Of a DNA stretch of 64,000 bases, positions 3,422 to 17,168 are shown piece after piece. Below the pieces are notes generated by a model. That model saw nothing but the letters and a program-made list of their open reading frames with translations, had not been told where the DNA came from and ran no database searches. Positions within the stretch are counted from its first letter, which is position 1. The number at the start of each line of letters is the position of its first letter. The position numbers were made by a program, and so were the translations under genes. Origin of the DNA: an uncultured bacterium (GTDB lineage Bacteria > Chloroflexota > UBA5177 > JANWHV01); assembly GCA_963827235.1 (NCBI GenBank), contig CAWHAE010000010.1, positions 256,001-320,000 on the forward strand. Reading direction: 5' to 3'.

Positions 3422-4126
3422 CTACAGCAAGCCGTCCCAAGCAAGGCTCCCCGGCAACGCGAACATTGCTTCAGCGCTGTGGATACCAACGCCGCGAAAC
3501 CCACCCTCGCCTTCAAGTGCGTAGTCAAGAACTGGGTTGTCAGGTCGGCCTGCATTAAGTAGCAGCTCGGCAAGCAGGGCGAGCGCACGGTCGCTACCGC
3601 ACACGCGCACCAGGTCGCGCGAGGTCCACGCCTCCTCGCTTTCGCGACCCTCTCGCACCTCGAGCAGGAAGCGTGGTAGATCCTCCGCCCGCACCCCGCC
3701 CGGTGTCCGCCACCAGGGATGACGGTCTGTATCGCCCGGATAGTAGCAGTACTGGTACGGGCGGCTTTGGTAGCCCGGGTAATCTTGCTCGAGGTACTCG
3801 TACTCGACCACGAGGTCCTTGATGTCGGATGCAGTATGGACCAGACTCACGGAGGTCTGAGAGGGCTGCTCGTGAAAGAGTACCGCCAGAATGAGCAAAC
3901 CCAGCTGGCGGAGCGTACGTCGAGACGCCTGAAACCACAACGCATCAGCGAGATATTCCACATTGTATTGATGGCGTGCCTTGCGAATGAATAGTTTGTC
4001 AGTCGCGAGGATCGGAGGTGGAACAGGCAAAGTCTGTGTGGAGAACACGAAATTGGGATAGCCCACTGGCCCTGTCGGCACGCGTTCCGCGATGCTTCCA
4101 TATACAGCTTCGAGGTCACATTCCAC
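3422..4126 (-). CDS. Hypothetical protein
   Basis: GTG at 4126 follows an AAAGGAG RBS. The longer ORF call to 4240 runs into IS sequence. C-terminal LEGEGGFRGVG...SAE...LPGS motif. Confidence 0.72.
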   Translation of the reverse strand: MECDLEAVYGSIAERVPTGPVGYPNFVFSTQTLPVPPPILATDKLFIRKARHQYNVEYLADALWFQASRRTLRQLGLLILAVLFHEQPSQTSVSLVHTASDIKDLVVEYEYLEQDYPGYQSRPYQYCYYPGDTDRHPWWRTPGGVRAEDLPRFLLEVREGRESEEAWTSRDLVRVCGSDRALALLAELLLNAGRPDNPVLDYALEGEGGFRGVGIHSAEAMFALPGSLAWDGLL

Positions 4127-4140
4127 GTACCCTATCTCCT

Positions 4141-5697
4141 TTAGGCTCAAGCATACTGCCAACGAGCAACAAACCTCTCTCAGGGCCTGGGGGAGAGGGC
4201 TGGCGCTCGAGAAGAGGGCCAGGCCGATGACCTGGAACACGCTATGGTATGGCCTGGTAGGCTACGACGCCATGGACCACACACCTGACTTTCGCCTACT
4301 GCAGCAGTGCCGTACCGACCTGTATGCCGCATTTGACCGGCCAGCCGATGCCCTGTTCGACCTAGTGGACGCTCTCCTGGCAACCGGCGCTGCCCCTTCA
4401 CCGGCACACCTGACTCTGGCTCCGTCGCATCAGCGTGGCTGGGGCAGCCTGTACGCCGCCCTGAGCAAAGGGCGCATCGACCGCGAGGCACTCTTGGGGC
4501 GTGTCGCACAGCTCCCGTTGGCTGCTGGCGAGCCCATCTACGGCGTGGACGCCAGTGTCTGGGCACGTTGCGACGCCGAGACCAGCCCCGAACGCGGCTT
4601 CTACTACCATCCGTCCCGCCATTCGGCCGGGCAGCCCATCGTGGCCGGCTGGTCCTACCAGTGGATGGCGCAGCTCGGTTTCGTCCGCGATAGCTGGACG
4701 GCGCCGGTCGAGGTGCAGCGGGTGCTACCAGGCGACAACACCCACACTGTGGCGGTCGCGCAGATCCGGGCCTTGCTGCGCCGCCATGGGCCGACAGCGG
4801 CGGTGCCCCTCTTCGTGTTTGATGCGGGCTACGACCCGGTCCCCCTCACGCTTGCCTTCGCCGACGAACGGGTGGCCATTCTCGTCCGCATGCGCAGCGA
4901 CCGCTGCTTCTTCGGTGAGCCACCCGTCAAGGCGCAGGTAGGCAATGGGCACGGACCGCGCTTCCGGCATGGAGCCAAGTTCGCCTGCAAGGACCCCACC
5001 ACCTGGCCCGCGCCGACGGACGAGCATCGCGAGGACGAACAGCACGGCGCGGTCCGCGTACGCTGCTGGACTGCTTTGCACGGTCGGCCCAAACGACAGG
5101 TTGGCCACGGCCACGGTCGCCGGCCGGTCGTATCGGGCGCCGTGGTCCTGGTGGAAGTCAGTCGCTTGCCTGGCCACACGCGCACACCGCAGGTGCTCTG
5201 GCTCTGGTGGGCAGGACCGGGCACCCCTAATCTGGCCACGCTCTGGCGCGCGTACGTGCGCCGCTTCGATCTGGAGCACACCTTCCGTTTCCTCAAGCAG
5301 ACCCTGAATTGGACCACGCCGCGCTTGCGGCATCCGGCACAAGCTGACCGCTGGACCTTGCTGGTACTGGCCGCCTACACTCAGCTGCAGCTCGCCCGTG
5401 GTCTCGTCGCCGACCAGCGCCTGCCATGGGAGCGACCCCAGCGCGCAGGCCGCCTGACGCCTTGCCGCGTCCAGCGCGCCTTTGCCGCGCTCGTGCCGCA
5501 CTTGGGTAGTCTCGCCAGTGCACCACAACCCTGCGGACGCTCCCCGGGACGGCCGAAAGGACGCCGCTCAGGCCCTGCTCGGCGCTATCCAGCTATCAAA
5601 CTCACCGCCTGAGCCCGCTCCCCAGCGACCAGTGGTCCGGATTATGCGAGCCGACGCCTAACCGGCTGACCTCGTCATGGCTAAAAGACAAGCTAAG
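4141..5697 (+). mobile_element. IS701-like (DDE superfamily) insertion sequence; ends approximate
   Basis: Intact transposase; right end ...GGCTAAAAGACAAGCTAAG; left boundary inferred next to the RBS of the 4126 gene. Confidence 0.7.
4272..5612 (+). CDS. DDE transposase (IS701-like/DDE_5 type)
   Basis: DALFDLVDALL, RGWGSLYAAL, VDASVWARCDAETSPERG, FVFDAGYD, YVRRFDLEHTFRFLKQTLNW, GRSPGRPKG. Confidence 0.92.
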   Translation: MDHTPDFRLLQQCRTDLYAAFDRPADALFDLVDALLATGAAPSPAHLTLAPSHQRGWGSLYAALSKGRIDREALLGRVAQLPLAAGEPIYGVDASVWARCDAETSPERGFYYHPSRHSAGQPIVAGWSYQWMAQLGFVRDSWTAPVEVQRVLPGDNTHTVAVAQIRALLRRHGPTAAVPLFVFDAGYDPVPLTLAFADERVAILVRMRSDRCFFGEPPVKAQVGNGHGPRFRHGAKFACKDPTTWPAPTDEHREDEQHGAVRVRCWTALHGRPKRQVGHGHGRRPVVSGAVVLVEVSRLPGHTRTPQVLWLWWAGPGTPNLATLWRAYVRRFDLEHTFRFLKQTLNWTTPRLRHPAQADRWTLLVLAAYTQLQLARGLVADQRLPWERPQRAGRLTPCRVQRAFAALVPHLGSLASAPQPCGRSPGRPKGRRSGPARRYPAIKLTA

Positions 5698-5972: not shown

Positions 5973-6326
5973 GCGTCAGACGGGAGTCCAGCAAGTTGCG
6001 CCGCGACGGTCAGGTAGTACATGCCAGTTCGCGGCCGACAACTCATTGCGACGATCCGCAACGCCCAGCCCGTCCTACCACGCAAACAACCGGGCAACGA
6101 CCGGCCCCTACTTCTACACAAGCTCCACAGGCGCGGGGCGCTGCAGGCGCGCGCTCACGTTGGCATGCAGGTGTCTCAGCCCGTCGGCGTGCACTCGGTA
6201 TTCGCCGGTCAGCTGTTTGACCACACCCAAGGCGGTGGCAGTGCGCCTTGCAGCTCGGCCGAATGGATGATTCGCCTGAAGGTCGATTCCTTGAACGTAG
6301 AGATCAGTGCCGACGAATGACTTGTG

Positions 6327-6549
6327 TTGACATGCGGTCTATGATCGGTTTGTGGTGGATGCGCCGACCTGCAGCCCTAGATAGGACCCGACGCCTCGAG
6401 AACCGCGAGCGGTGATGTCGCTCCCGTCCCGTTGACGTCTCTATTCCTTGGCCACCCTTGGACCGCAACGAGCAACTGGTGGACCCGGCCACGACGGCAC
6501 GGTCGTGCGCCGGGTTTTTTGTACTTGGCGTCGCACGGGAAGGAGGTGG
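6327..6549 (+). ncRNA. Putative structured leader/ncRNA, copy A
   Basis: Homologous to 15550-15774; stems are conserved while loops differ; ends in AAGGAGGTGG. Confidence 0.55.
6483..6520 (+). terminator. Intrinsic terminator-like hairpin inside leader A
   Basis: ACCCGGC-CACGAC-loop-GTCGTG-C-GCCGGGT followed by a T run. Confidence 0.65.
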
Positions 6550-6710
6550 AGCGCTGTGCGTGCGAGGCGTGGGCATGGGCAGCTGATGGCTCTCGGCGAC
6601 GGTACTGTGCTGCGAGTTGAAGCCGCTTAGCAAGACTGGACGGCCTCTGCGCTGGGCGAACGGTCAAGGCTGCGCCTGCGAGGCTGTCCCTCTAGTAGAA
6701 GGGCCCGACA

Positions 6711-7451
6711 ATGATCGGTACCTGGATAGGCGCCATCGCGTTCACAGCGTTCGGCCTGGTGTTCCTGCTTATCTTCTGGCGTCCAAAGGACTCCGACGAC
6801 TGGATCACCCTGGCAGCCTTCAAGGCGGGGTCGCTCGTAGCCCTCTCCATTGGCTACATTCTGCTTCAGTCCGCGGTTCACGCTCACTGGCCTGTGCTCG
6901 GAGAGCAGATCGCATGGACGATCATCCTAGCACCTTTTGTGGCGGGATTTCTTTGTCTCGGTTGGTACACGGTATCCAGTCGCCGTGATCTCAAGGCGCT
7001 GGCACGCGCACCACTGTCCACCACAATCGAGGCGATTGGCGAGAACGCAGTTGAGAATGCGTTTTCGGAGGGTCCACCCGATGCGTTGAAGACGGCCGCC
7101 GCCGGTGTGGTCGAAGTAGGCATCTTGCGCTTGCCCTTAGGCTGGCTCGTACTGGCACTGCTTCCCGCTGTCGTCGCCGTTGTGCTTGTATTCGGTATAT
7201 GCGAACTGTGGGTGACCGGCCCCGTTGCAGCCGGCACAACCTCTGACACTCATGGGGGCGTGAACGTTCCAGCTCTATTCGAACACGTCGCCTACTATAC
7301 ATTCTTTGGCGGTATGCTCGTCGGAGGACTTGCGATGGGCCTCATGCACTGGATAGACAAGGAGCACACGGATTCCGACTGGCTTCTCTGTGTCGCAGCC
7401 GCTGCCGTGTTCTTGGTCCCCTACATGCTGTTCGAGGGCGTTTGGGCATAG
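6711..7451 (+). CDS. Hypothetical multi-pass membrane protein
   Basis: 246-aa ORF with about six hydrophobic segments; AGAAGGG RBS. Confidence 0.7.
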   Translation: MIGTWIGAIAFTAFGLVFLLIFWRPKDSDDWITLAAFKAGSLVALSIGYILLQSAVHAHWPVLGEQIAWTIILAPFVAGFLCLGWYTVSSRRDLKALARAPLSTTIEAIGENAVENAFSEGPPDALKTAAAGVVEVGILRLPLGWLVLALLPAVVAVVLVFGICELWVTGPVAAGTTSDTHGGVNVPALFEHVAYYTFFGGMLVGGLAMGLMHWIDKEHTDSDWLLCVAAAAVFLVPYMLFEGVWA

Positions 7452-10410: not shown

Positions 10411-10677
10411 GGTTGCAATTCTAGTGCATCTGGTATAAACTAGCAACCGCCAATCGCGTGTTTCGCAGTGTACCCGTCACGTGCACCAGGTGCTCGGCGT
10501 GCGTCGGAGGAGGCTTCTTGCCATGCCCGGAGACGTTCCAGCCAACTACCGCTACGCTGCTTGGGCTCCTGGGCGTCCAGGCACTGCTGTGAAACGTGGC
10601 CACCAGTTGGCTGGTCCCGCACGATGCTGACCATGGGTGCTCGCACGGCCTGGCCAGAGAAGGAGAAGAGTGCATCG

Positions 10678-13418
<2,741 letters not shown>

Positions 13419-15475: not shown

Positions 15476-15549
15476 CGCATGTCTGTTGAGCCTGGCGGCG
15501 AATGCCCGCTACGCACCTGACAAAGCGAGCAAGCTGACCAATCCGTGCC

Positions 15550-15774
15550 TTGACATGCGGTATATAATCGTTTTGGAGTGGATGTGACGACCTGCCGTCC
15601 TAGAAAGGGCCCGACGCCGAAAGAACCGCGAGCGACACGAGCGCTCCCCTCCTGCTGACGCCTGCTCTTATCTGGCCACCTCTGGACGGCGGCGAGCAAC
15701 TGGTGAACCCGGCCACGAAGGATCTGTCGTGCGCCGGGTTTCGTGTGCTTGGCGCCGGAGAGGCAAGGAGGTGG
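15550..15774 (+). ncRNA. Putative structured leader/ncRNA, copy B
   Basis: Homologous to 6327-6549; long pairing CTGCCGTCC/GGACGGCGG; terminal hairpin; AAGGAGGTGG. Confidence 0.55.
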
Positions 15775-16049: not shown

Positions 16050-17168
16050 ATGGTCACGGCAGCCGAGGTCACAAGTGTCGCGGACAGTTGGCATACGGGT
16101 CGGGAGAAGAAGATCGACCTGGTATGCGAAGGCGGCGGCGTGCTGGGGATCGGGCTCGTCGGCGCCTACTCGGTGCTGGAGGAGCAAGGCTTTAAGGTAC
16201 AGAACCTGGCAGGCACGTCGGCCGGGGCGATCGTCACGGCACTTGTCGCCGCCGGCTACACCGCCGCCGAGATCAAGAACATAATCTACAGCCTGGATTT
16301 CAGGCAACTGCTGGATCCGGTACCTGTGATGGACTGGCCCCTGGTAGGCGAGGCGCTGCCGATGAAGCTGCTCGCGCTTGTCTCCGCGCACGGGGAATAC
16401 CAGGGCAATGCGTTCGAGCACCTGATGACACGGTATCTGACCGGTAAGCAGATCAGGACCTTCGGCGACCTGATCTACGATAGCGCTGAGCCGAAGACGT
16501 CGGTGTACCGCTACCGTCTGCACGTGATCGCCTCGGACGTCACCGCGCGCCGCCTGCTGCGGCTGCCGCTCGACGCCGGCACGCTGGGCTACGATCCGGA
16601 CGAGCTCCCCGTGGCGAGAGCGGTACGCATGAGCATGAGCATCCCGTTCTTCTTCGTGCCGGTCGTGCAGGCCGATCCGCGAACCGGGCAGAAGCACACG
16701 GTGGTGGATGGCGGCATGCTCTCGAACTTCCCGGTCTGGCTGTTCGACGTGCCGGGCGTTCCCAAGTGGCCCACGTTCGGCGTCAAGCTGGTCGCCGGGG
16801 CGCAGACGGACGAGATCGGATCGACCCTGGCCGCGGTGCCGGTCCTGGACACGATCAGCTACGTCCAGTCGCTGGTCGGCACGATGACAGCATTCCACGA
16901 TCGGCTCTATCTCGACACCCACTCGGCGGCTCGCACGATCGCGGTGCCCACCGGCGCGCTCTCCTCGACCAACTTCGACCTCTCACCCGCGGACAAGGAT
17001 GAGCTGTTCGCAAGCGGGCGAAAGGCGGCCCTGGAGTTCGTCGGGGAGGATGGCAGCCGGTGGCCGTTTGCTGGCTACATCGCCGCGTTCCGGTCGGGCA
17101 AGGAGCGGCCACAGCGACAGCAGCTGATCTTCGACGAGATGCGGCAGGCGGTGGCGAAGCTGAGCTAG
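16050..17168 (+). CDS. Patatin-like phospholipase
   Basis: EGGGVLG oxyanion hole, GTSAG nucleophile, SMSIPFFF, VDGGMLSNFP; GGAGG RBS before ATG 16050. Confidence 0.93.
   Translation: MVTAAEVTSVADSWHTGREKKIDLVCEGGGVLGIGLVGAYSVLEEQGFKVQNLAGTSAGAIVTALVAAGYTAAEIKNIIYSLDFRQLLDPVPVMDWPLVGEALPMKLLALVSAHGEYQGNAFEHLMTRYLTGKQIRTFGDLIYDSAEPKTSVYRYRLHVIASDVTARRLLRLPLDAGTLGYDPDELPVARAVRMSMSIPFFFVPVVQADPRTGQKHTVVDGGMLSNFPVWLFDVPGVPKWPTFGVKLVAGAQTDEIGSTLAAVPVLDTISYVQSLVGTMTAFHDRLYLDTHSAARTIAVPTGALSSTNFDLSPADKDELFASGRKAALEFVGEDGSRWPFAGYIAAFRSGKERPQRQQLIFDEMRQAVAKLS

Follow-up and report, generated by a model that had tools for sequence, protein, structure and literature searches.

Two leaders in an uncultured Chloroflexota bacterium as probable long-form members of the c-di-GMP-II riboswitch clan

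We analyzed a window of 64,000 nucleotides (nt) from an uncultured bacterium of the Chloroflexota (GenBank assembly GCA_963827235.1, contig CAWHAE010000010.1, positions 256,001 to 320,000), which carries two related leader elements. Copy A extends from TTGACA at 6327 to the end of AAGGAGGTGG at 6549, and copy B from TTGACA at 15550 to ...GGTGG at 15774; both lie on the forward strand, as do the leader parts and genes of the window placed below. A search of the whole 8.0-Mb assembly aligned A with B at 79% identity over 223 nt (E 1.5e-46), which confirmed, to the exact coordinates, the repeated leader reported in a first-pass annotation of the window. In the pairwise alignment mean column identity was 84%, and similarity was lost right after AAGGAGGTGGA. 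Reading the sequence also bore out a GAGCG/CGCTC stem with swapped loops (GTGATGT and ACACGAG), a CCCGGC-CACGA/TCGTG-C-GCCGGG hairpin with a replaced loop, and the shared terminal AAGGAGGTGG, all of which had been pointed out before. The annotation had counted two copies; instead, the genome holds 19 matches at 72-81% identity to A, 18 of them full length and one (L017) a 3' fragment. It had also been unable to match the element to a riboswitch family. The Rfam search for a known family returned the clan of cyclic di-guanosine monophosphate (c-di-GMP) riboswitches of class II (CL00127, comprising RF01786, RF03169, and RF03170), and by sequence and structure A and B are long-form members of it. 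Thus the observation of repeated leaders is confirmed, and their reading as an undescribed family is not.

When matches were reported by E-value, copy A aligned to RF03169 (c-di-GMP-II-GAG) at 6348-6499 over the full model positions 1-86, with 23.5 bits and an E-value of 0.039. The alignment skipped 74 nt inside the P3 hairpin by a local end, the corresponding figure being 71-74 nt in the long forms. Sixteen of the 18 other loci in the genome matched RF03169 (13 loci) or RF03170 (3 loci) at 31.4-43.4 bits, and four of the 18 reached the gathering score of 40 (L015 43.4, L012 40.7, L014 40.5, and L018 40.0). Across 41 related genomes, RF03169 had matches in 20, which were above the cut-off in 17. 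Match lengths were 82-104 nt outside the genus of the window, and about 150 nt in the window's genome (hereafter G000) and its congener G001. Tallies over related genomes include the unpublished genome G018, and the conclusions are independent of it. The -GAG and -GCG variant aptamers modeled by RF03169 and RF03170 reportedly originate from Weinberg et al. (PNAS, 2017).

A covariance model, R1, was built from a hand-written structure on the aligned 18 full copies of G000, and gave 129.2 bits for copy A and 156.9 bits for copy B. The predicted aptamer of copy A (6347-6500) is composed of P1 (6349-6358 with 6489-6498), P2 (6360-6362 with 6472-6474), kink-turn GA dinucleotides (6366-6367 and 6470-6471), P3 (6369-6377 with 6460-6468, six of nine pairs forming), and a pseudoknot between CCACC (6452-6456) and GGTGG (6478-6482). 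In copy B the long-form aptamer, including its accessory hairpin, spans 15570-15724, with all nine P3 pairs (CUGCCGUCC with GGACGGCGG) and a CACC/GGUG pseudoknot. The CCACC tracts described in the first-pass annotation as resembling an anti-Shine-Dalgarno (SD) sequence are therefore present, yet their role is that of a pseudoknot loop strand pairing with GGUG(G/A).

The structure was evaluated as 49 pairs (P1, P2, a 9-bp P3, four insertion helices, and the pseudoknot) on 56 long forms, in an alignment that was fitted to the model and thus favors the structure. Paired cells amounted to 80.5%, versus 31.7-52.0% when the 3' partners were slid by 1-3 columns, while 33 pairs changed on both sides, versus 13-24 in the slid controls. 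The covariation score was 0.213, compared to at most 0.091 in the slid controls, and was reached by 0 of 500 shuffles. Specifically, helices 1-3 (P1, P2, and P3) were paired in 75.0%, 96.4%, and 90.0% of cells, and 13 of their 22 pairs changed on both sides; the kink-turn GA/GA was invariant in all 18 full G000 copies. The pseudoknot, (U/C)CACC with GGUG(A/G), was paired in 89.4% of cells, although four of its five pairs barely vary and its covariation support is thin. Its closing pair is U-A in 28 sequences, C·A in 25, and C-G in one, namely copy A, where a G in the core restores the pair with CCACC. Run on the same model-fitted alignment, RNAalifold recovered the P1 core, P3, and the apical hairpin, and none of the other helices. 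It also proposed a short CCC/GGG hairpin where the P3 loop begins, which we dropped in favor of the 9-bp P3, the latter being homologous to the Rfam model and to compact relatives.

The first-pass annotation had further noted that CGTTG/CAACG in copy A and TGCTG/CGGCG in copy B can pair. These strands are indeed complementary, and the corresponding columns (UGCUG/CAGCG in most copies) are paired in 79.0% of cells, including some double changes, with one pair found as U-A (20), C-G (11), and U-G (11). The helix is complete in copy A (5/5 pairs, next to 6/9 for P3), but retains 0-2 of its five pairs in 9 of the 56 sequences, all divergent members. Since it takes up the P3 3' strand and one base of box 2 of the insertion, it is incompatible with the aptamer fold and excludes the better-conserved P3. 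Some members of the family may use it as an alternative pairing of the ligand-free RNA, or it may simply result from the resemblance between the two 5' strands.

What sets these leaders apart is a hairpin inserted in the P3 loop, which in copy A spans 6380-6446 (helices 4-7). It consists of an outer stem (approximately 6380-6384 with 6442-6446), a duplex of two boxes (GACGCC at 6390-6395 with GACGTC at 6434-6439; GACGCC/GACGCC in the family), a short stem, and an apical hairpin (GAGCG at 6407-6411 with CGCTC at 6419-6423), in that order. The insertion is missing from compact relatives of 78-104 nt, which read ...GCAGCCCUAACAUGGUCACCCGGACUGC...; about 3 loop nt of theirs are replaced by a 65-75-nt hairpin just 5' of the pseudoknot strand. 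Of the 22 pairs in helices 4-7, 19 change on both sides among the 56 sequences. The outer stem covaries freely (AAGGGU/GCUCUU, GAGGAU/AUCUUC, AAAGGA/UCCUUU, and others), and the apical hairpin appears elsewhere as GAGUG/CACUC, GAGUGG/CUGCUC, or CUGACG/CGUUAG. The weakest part of the model is the CAAG/CUUG helix, which is poorly aligned in the chosen register and paired in 54-58% of cells.

The box duplex behaves differently at its individual pairs. Four G-C/C-G pairs are kept in 45-52 of the 56 sequences; at the second pair the counts are 39 A·C, 12 G-C, and 3 A-U, and at the fifth 45 C·A, 5 C-G, and 1 U-A. The occasional Watson-Crick replacements support the pairing itself, and the marked bias toward A·C points to selection on the mismatches themselves. 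A separate observation concerns the 3' half of the insertion (..UGCUGACGCCUGCUC..; 15647-15721 in copy B and the equivalent columns in all copies), which resembles the kink-turn/P3 5' region of the aptamer (..GCGCUGACCUGCAG..). The resemblance is close enough for RF01786 to accept it as a pseudo-5' half, which hints that the insertion arose by partial internal duplication.

R1 searches detected the long form (144-164 nt) in all five genomes of the genus (G000 18, G001 11, G002 3, G003 1, and G004 1). Genome G001 also holds two compact copies. From the sister family f3 R1 retrieved compact forms alone (78-90 nt), in 8 of 12 genomes, and in family f2 it had no match in any of four genomes. A long-form pattern scan over one genome each of 185,579 species gave two loci, both in Chloroflexota metagenome-assembled genomes (G002 and G003), while the scan of metagenome contigs gave 24 long-form loci, all 24 of which matched R1 at 72-166 bits. 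In these searches the long form was thus limited to this Chloroflexota genus and to 24 metagenome contigs. Loci L034 and L044 of G001 are near-identical, canonical compact c-di-GMP-II aptamers (GUGCAACCGG core) that occur alongside the 11 long forms; a compact copy of this genome is a canonical RF01786 match (58.0 bits, gathering score 53.5). Literature searches on the long form and on c-di-GMP-II in Chloroflexota gave no description of this form, a coverage outside which Weinberg 2017, Smith 2011, and Lee 2010 fall. The novelty lies in the accessory hairpin and its conserved duplex with two A·C mismatches, in the lack of constraint at A70, and in a family as large as 18 full copies in a single genome.

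For the binding core, residue equivalents were mapped through the Rfam consensus lines, and their roles were taken from the structure 3Q3Z (PMC13715770). In that structure A69 contacts Gα, G73 and the A70 ribose contact Gβ, A70 intercalates between the two ligand bases, and A61 forms the ceiling of the pocket (PMC13715770). The core reads GGUGGACCCGG in copy A and GGUGAACCCGG in copy B, so that the equivalents of G67-C68-A69 are GGA and GAA, respectively; the GAG core of the RF03169 type is absent from both. From the consensus lines we infer that the "GAG" triplet of RF03169 would correspond to an A69 to G change. Among the 56 long forms, the equivalent of A61 is A in 55, that of A69 is A in 56, and that of G73 is G in 52. 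That change is absent from the long forms, which represent a third core type, in common with the compact GAACCCG aptamers of sister family f3.

In view of the conserved equivalents of A69, G73, and A61 and of the 27 GGDEF matches in the genome, c-di-GMP is the most probable ligand, a choice that we favor somewhat. Two positions count against it. The equivalent of A70 is A in 26, C in 27, U in 2, and G in 1 of the 56 sequences (C in both A and B), and that of C68 is A in 54, so that specificity or affinity may differ from canonical c-di-GMP-II. The same scaffold might serve another ligand, if the GAA(C/A)CCG core, perhaps with the accessory hairpin, had shifted to a different dinucleotide, cyclic or linear, such as 3',3'-cyclic GMP-AMP (3',3'-cGAMP) or pGpG, or to an unnamed signal. 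Changed specificity has been the proposal made for the Rfam -GAG and -GCG variants, and the best Rfam model here is the variant RF03169 rather than canonical RF01786, which had no match in G000 at E <= 0.01. G001 carries canonical compact copies (GUGCAACCGG) together with long forms, as one would predict for elements that sense different signals, and conservation is lacking at the A70 equivalent. Minor alterations close to the pocket do shift dinucleotide preference in the c-di-GMP-II scaffold, and a single-nucleotide deletion in such an aptamer is reported to give cGAMP binding (PMC13715770). On the other hand, the long forms retain both residues that make hydrogen bonds to the ligand bases (A69 in 56/56, G73 in 52/56), A69 is A and not the G that the -GAG/-GCG consensus implies, and the gene context of secreted and surface proteins is typical of c-di-GMP control. 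On balance we consider a different ligand unlikely, if a serious contender, and retain c-di-GMP.

Upstream of the aptamers, the boxes of copy A occupy 6327-6345 (TTGACA at 6327-6332 and TATGAT at 6340-6345), and those of copy B 15550-15568 (TTGACA at 15550-15555 and TATAAT at 15563-15568). In 13 of the 18 full G000 copies P1 is preceded, at a distance of 7-8 nt, by a TATAAT-like hexamer (it is missing in L014-L016), and consequently the putative promoter would start transcription at the foot of P1. No public sequencing run was found for 6250-7450. The first-pass annotation had paired TTGACA with the -10-like TAT(A/G)AT; both boxes are there, but with only 7 nt between them TTGACA cannot be the -35 of that hexamer. 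A promoter scan of copy A proposed ATGACT (6317), a spacer of 17 nt, and TATGAT, with 9 of 12 consensus matches, and for copy B it called no sigma-70-type pair. Copies A, B, L002, L003, L005, and L012 have three (C/T)TGAC(A)-like boxes at intervals of about 16-17 nt, located some 60 nt ahead of the -10-like box (e.g., 15517-15555), the last of them being the TTGACA of copies A and B; the three might bind a regulator as an array or act as a non-canonical promoter. Loci L006-L011 and L013 form a second subgroup with CTGTGCACGCTACTGTGCG upstream instead. As another observation, about 135 nt upstream of the L015 aptamer there is a near-perfect 60-nt palindrome (L036:1785-1844, the same as 1809-1868 of L015), a 30-bp hairpin with zero loop and two G-U pairs, which gave chance matches to mir-3130 (45.5 bits) and mir-2450.

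At the 3' end, each copy carries a predicted intrinsic terminator. That of copy A (6484-6520) is formed by CCCGGCCACGA...TCGTGCGCCGGG followed by T6 (6515-6520), with -26.6 kcal/mol, and that of copy B (15708-15745) by CCCGGCCACGA...TCGTGCGCCGGG with a weaker tail, TTTCGTGT, and -21.8 kcal/mol; the U-rich tail is thus U6 in A and UUUCGUGU in B. Terminator hairpins were predicted in 19 of 19 G000 copies (-19.0 to -27.4 kcal/mol), and those of A and B were present in both the minimum free energy and the centroid folds. A simple terminator scan did not list the hairpins of A and B; the stem of A has a bulged C. The aptamer (core ACCCGG and P1 3' strand) shares CCCGGCCACGA with the terminator stem: within ACCCGGCCACGA, which doubles as 5' half of the hairpin closed by UCGUG-C-GCCGGG, lie the core residues and the opening bases of the P1 3' strand. 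The two folds are therefore mutually exclusive, and ligand binding would presumably prevent termination. In the proposed mechanism, ligand-free RNA would fold the terminator, with the P1 3' strand CCACGA... and ACCCGG as its 5' half, and transcription would stop. Bound ligand would lock P1 and the pseudoknot, the terminator would be blocked, and the downstream gene would be read, making this a putative ON switch. The earlier suggestion of a structured cis-regulatory leader with a terminator, either attenuator or riboswitch, is supported by these results, and each copy is probably a c-di-GMP-II-class riboswitch leader whose long form is specific to this lineage.

In most G000 copies (e.g., L007, L008, L011, L013, and L017), the terminator 3' strand GCGCCGGG is perfectly complementary to CCCGGCGC, located about 8 nt downstream and just before the SD. 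The best local fold pairs GCGCCGGG with CCCGGCGC in 5 of the 19 copies, and this pairing may be a third conformer, acting only in read-through transcripts.

All 18 full copies are located upstream of, and co-oriented with, an open reading frame (ORF), and their similarity runs into the coding N-terminus. As this region is the signal-peptide-coding start of the gene, the pattern points to gene-family duplication. Thirteen of the 19 G000 copies precede an ORF whose N-terminus, judged by eye, is basic, then hydrophobic, and signal-peptide-like; published c-di-GMP-II examples likewise precede surface proteins (PMC9481103). Pfam families of downstream proteins were a Lactonase/YncE-type beta-propeller (L002), SBP_bac_5 (L005), a weak beta-helix match (L015), a redoxin (L003), an adenosine-specific kinase family (L007), and a SnoaL-like protein (L010), while eight other downstream proteins, including a recurring 229-aa family, had no Pfam family. 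The cassette's own ORF has a truncation or a frameshift in L003, L007, L009, and L010. Seven loci (L002, L006, L008, L011, L012, L013, and L017) share an N-terminal module over the first ~50 codons, M.STRKLVALLVV.LA.LALGPAPAARA ... (V/I)FPPQ.HPY. It is common to otherwise differing proteins (the 229-aa family without Pfam assignment and YncE/lactonase-type beta-propellers), has been duplicated with the leader, and may be a sorting or anchoring signal. A search of the ESM Atlas with the 229-aa secreted paralogue protein retrieved only "hypothetical protein" clusters and no Pfam family.

These gene contexts also bear on whether the leaders could be an undescribed RNA class, namely a new attenuator, small RNA (sRNA), type I toxin leader, or mobile-element end, all of which the first-pass annotation had entertained. 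The many copies per genome, the transposase gene near A, the short ORFs that follow an SD-like site in A and B, and the lack of any Rfam match at gathering threshold in the window would all fit such a class. Yet the copies align full length to models of the c-di-GMP-II clan with conserved core motifs, and compact homologues score above gathering across the bacterial class. The short ORFs after A and B are not conserved. The copies stand upstream of co-oriented genes, show compensatory changes, and have been duplicated together with a signal-peptide-coding gene start, which points to gene-family duplication. Reading the copy ends revealed no terminal inverted repeats or target duplications, although no dedicated repeat search was made. 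An undescribed class is accordingly highly improbable, and no support emerged for the sRNA, toxin-leader, and mobile-element readings.

Several results weigh against the reading of copies A and B as c-di-GMP-II-class leaders. At gathering thresholds, Rfam had no match across the whole window. Copy A falls below the RF03169 gathering score (23.5 versus 40), and neither copy B nor the fragment L017 was matched in the Rfam search of the 18 loci. Searched alone, copy B matched only RF01786, at 18.5 bits (gathering score 53.5) and an E-value of 0.18 over 15647-15721, in an alignment that was mis-registered and took the 3' half of the insertion for the 5' half of the aptamer. These low scores and misses at threshold are attributed to the 65-75-nt hairpin inserted in the P3 loop. 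Single-sequence folding energies were no better than those of shuffles (z = 0.09 for A and -0.41 for B), so that support for the structure is comparative and not thermodynamic. In P3, 7-9 of nine pairs form in 55 of the 56 long forms, and copy A is the sole exception, with three of nine positions unpaired. Only A and L015 have strong U-tracts; in the other copies, B among them, the tract is interrupted. Finally, the start codon and ORF of the paralogues are missing after A and B, with the next genes about 160 and 310 nt away, respectively, and the genes after A and B had no match in four congeners (genomes 83-92% complete), which means that a conserved association between riboswitch and gene cannot be shown.

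At the SD/ATG the 18 aligned copies show the paralogues reading AGGAAGGAGAAGGACATG, whereas the SD-like AAGGAGGTGG of copy A (6540-6549), homologous to the SD of the paralogues, lacks their ATG. Copy B has the same AAGGAGGTGG at 15765-15774, and A, B, L017, and L080 of G001 share a variant 3' end, AAGGA(G/C)GTGGA(G/T)CG, without ATG. The first ORF after A (6711-7451) encodes a 246-aa hydrophobic protein with no Pfam family, and the first plausible gene after B (16050-17168), about 310 nt past the terminator and with its ATG following GGAGGAA, encodes a patatin-like phospholipase (PF01734, 87.6 bits). A DDE transposase gene (4092-5612; 506-aa ORF, DDE_5 / DDE_Tnp_1) lies 0.7 kb upstream of A, and the region around copy A may be an accessory, rearranged segment. 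Between the copies there are a ferritin-like ORF (10468-11190) and a catalase-peroxidase-like one (11037-13418; PF00141, 242 bits), which overlap as listed, so one start was probably called too early.

From this arrangement A and B could be decaying relics, that is, duplicated leader cassettes that lost their gene by rearrangement in an accessory region bearing insertion sequences and no longer regulate anything. Such decay would fit the absence of the ATG and signal-peptide ORF that directly follow the paralogues, the proximity of the transposase gene, the lack of congener matches for the downstream genes, and the broken state of other paralogues (the 3' fragment L017 and the disrupted ORFs of L003, L007, L009, and L010). 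Copy A, with its 6/9 P3, also has the lowest R1 score of the 13 G000 copies with a GAACCCG-type core (129 versus 155-180 bits). Several features of the leaders themselves contradict it: copy B retains nine of nine P3 pairs, the pseudoknot, the core, and the terminator, while in copy A the terminator (T6, -26.6 kcal/mol) is the best of any copy, every core residue is retained, and the changes are partly compensatory (the outer stem GAUAG/CUAUU of the insertion and the CGUUG/CAACG pairs). Moreover, a terminator-type switch can control a gene 160-310 nt away. We thus judge decay improbable without dismissing it. Copy B appears intact, copy A is weakened in P3, both are detached from the co-duplicated gene family, and both are presumably still active as c-di-GMP-II-class leaders.

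The lineage-specific insertion hides a known riboswitch class from standard annotation, as illustrated by zero matches at threshold in the window and 18 full copies in the genome. Behind it would lie an unusually large regulon of secreted proteins under a single riboswitch type, in a little-studied lineage of the Chloroflexota for which metagenome-assembled genomes are the only source. Biochemical questions are raised about the role of the double-A·C duplex and about the effect of losing the intercalating adenine on the dinucleotide sensed. The box duplex could act as a second sensor, for example through A+·C pairs that depend on protonation or pH or by binding a metal or a protein, or it could serve in docking, and the unconstrained A70 could alter dinucleotide specificity. 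It is rather doubtful, although conceivable, that the long form constitutes a distinct c-di-GMP-II subclass with an added or altered input, in which the regulon of about 18 genes, most of them for secreted proteins, would answer something beyond plain c-di-GMP. If the ligand is plain c-di-GMP and the hairpin a mere scaffold, the result is a useful annotation and nothing beyond.

In comparison with known systems, the long forms share with c-di-GMP-II (RF01786; structure 3Q3Z) the stem P1, P2 with its kink-turn, P3, and the pseudoknot between P3 loop and 3' junction, as well as the conserved strings GGA.GC..GA and GAGC.A.UGGUG.A.CCGG, the equivalents of A61, A69, and G73, the 5' leader position, and the surface- and secreted-protein genes downstream. 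They differ from it in size, about 155 nt versus about 85 nt, as the accessory hairpin roughly doubles the element, and in the substitutions G57 to C (ACUGG for AGUGG) and C68 to A and the variable A70, and their scores stay far under the RF01786 gathering score. With the variants RF03169 and RF03170 they have clan and architecture in common, and the core of both sets departs from the canonical GCAA. Nevertheless, the RF03169 consensus has no long insertion and reads GGCGAGACCG where the long forms read GGUGAA(C/A)CCG, and A69, apparently changed to G in -GAG and -GCG, is kept as A in 56/56 long forms. The engineered c-di-GMP-II-Bh variant uses the same scaffold and binds 2',3'- and 3',3'-cGAMP, but is a laboratory construct made by a single-nucleotide deletion, without an accessory domain or natural regulatory context (PMC13715770). 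The nearest relatives of the window copies are the compact GAACCCG-type aptamers of sister family f3 (e.g., L021, L022, and L024-L026), which share the core ...GAGCCACUGGUGAACCCG..., the loop strand GG(U/C)CACC, and the terminator design, in which the core and the P1 3' strand form the terminator 5' half. Unlike the window copies, these aptamers are only 82-87 nt long, lack the accessory hairpin, and score 45-56 bits on RF03169, above its gathering score.

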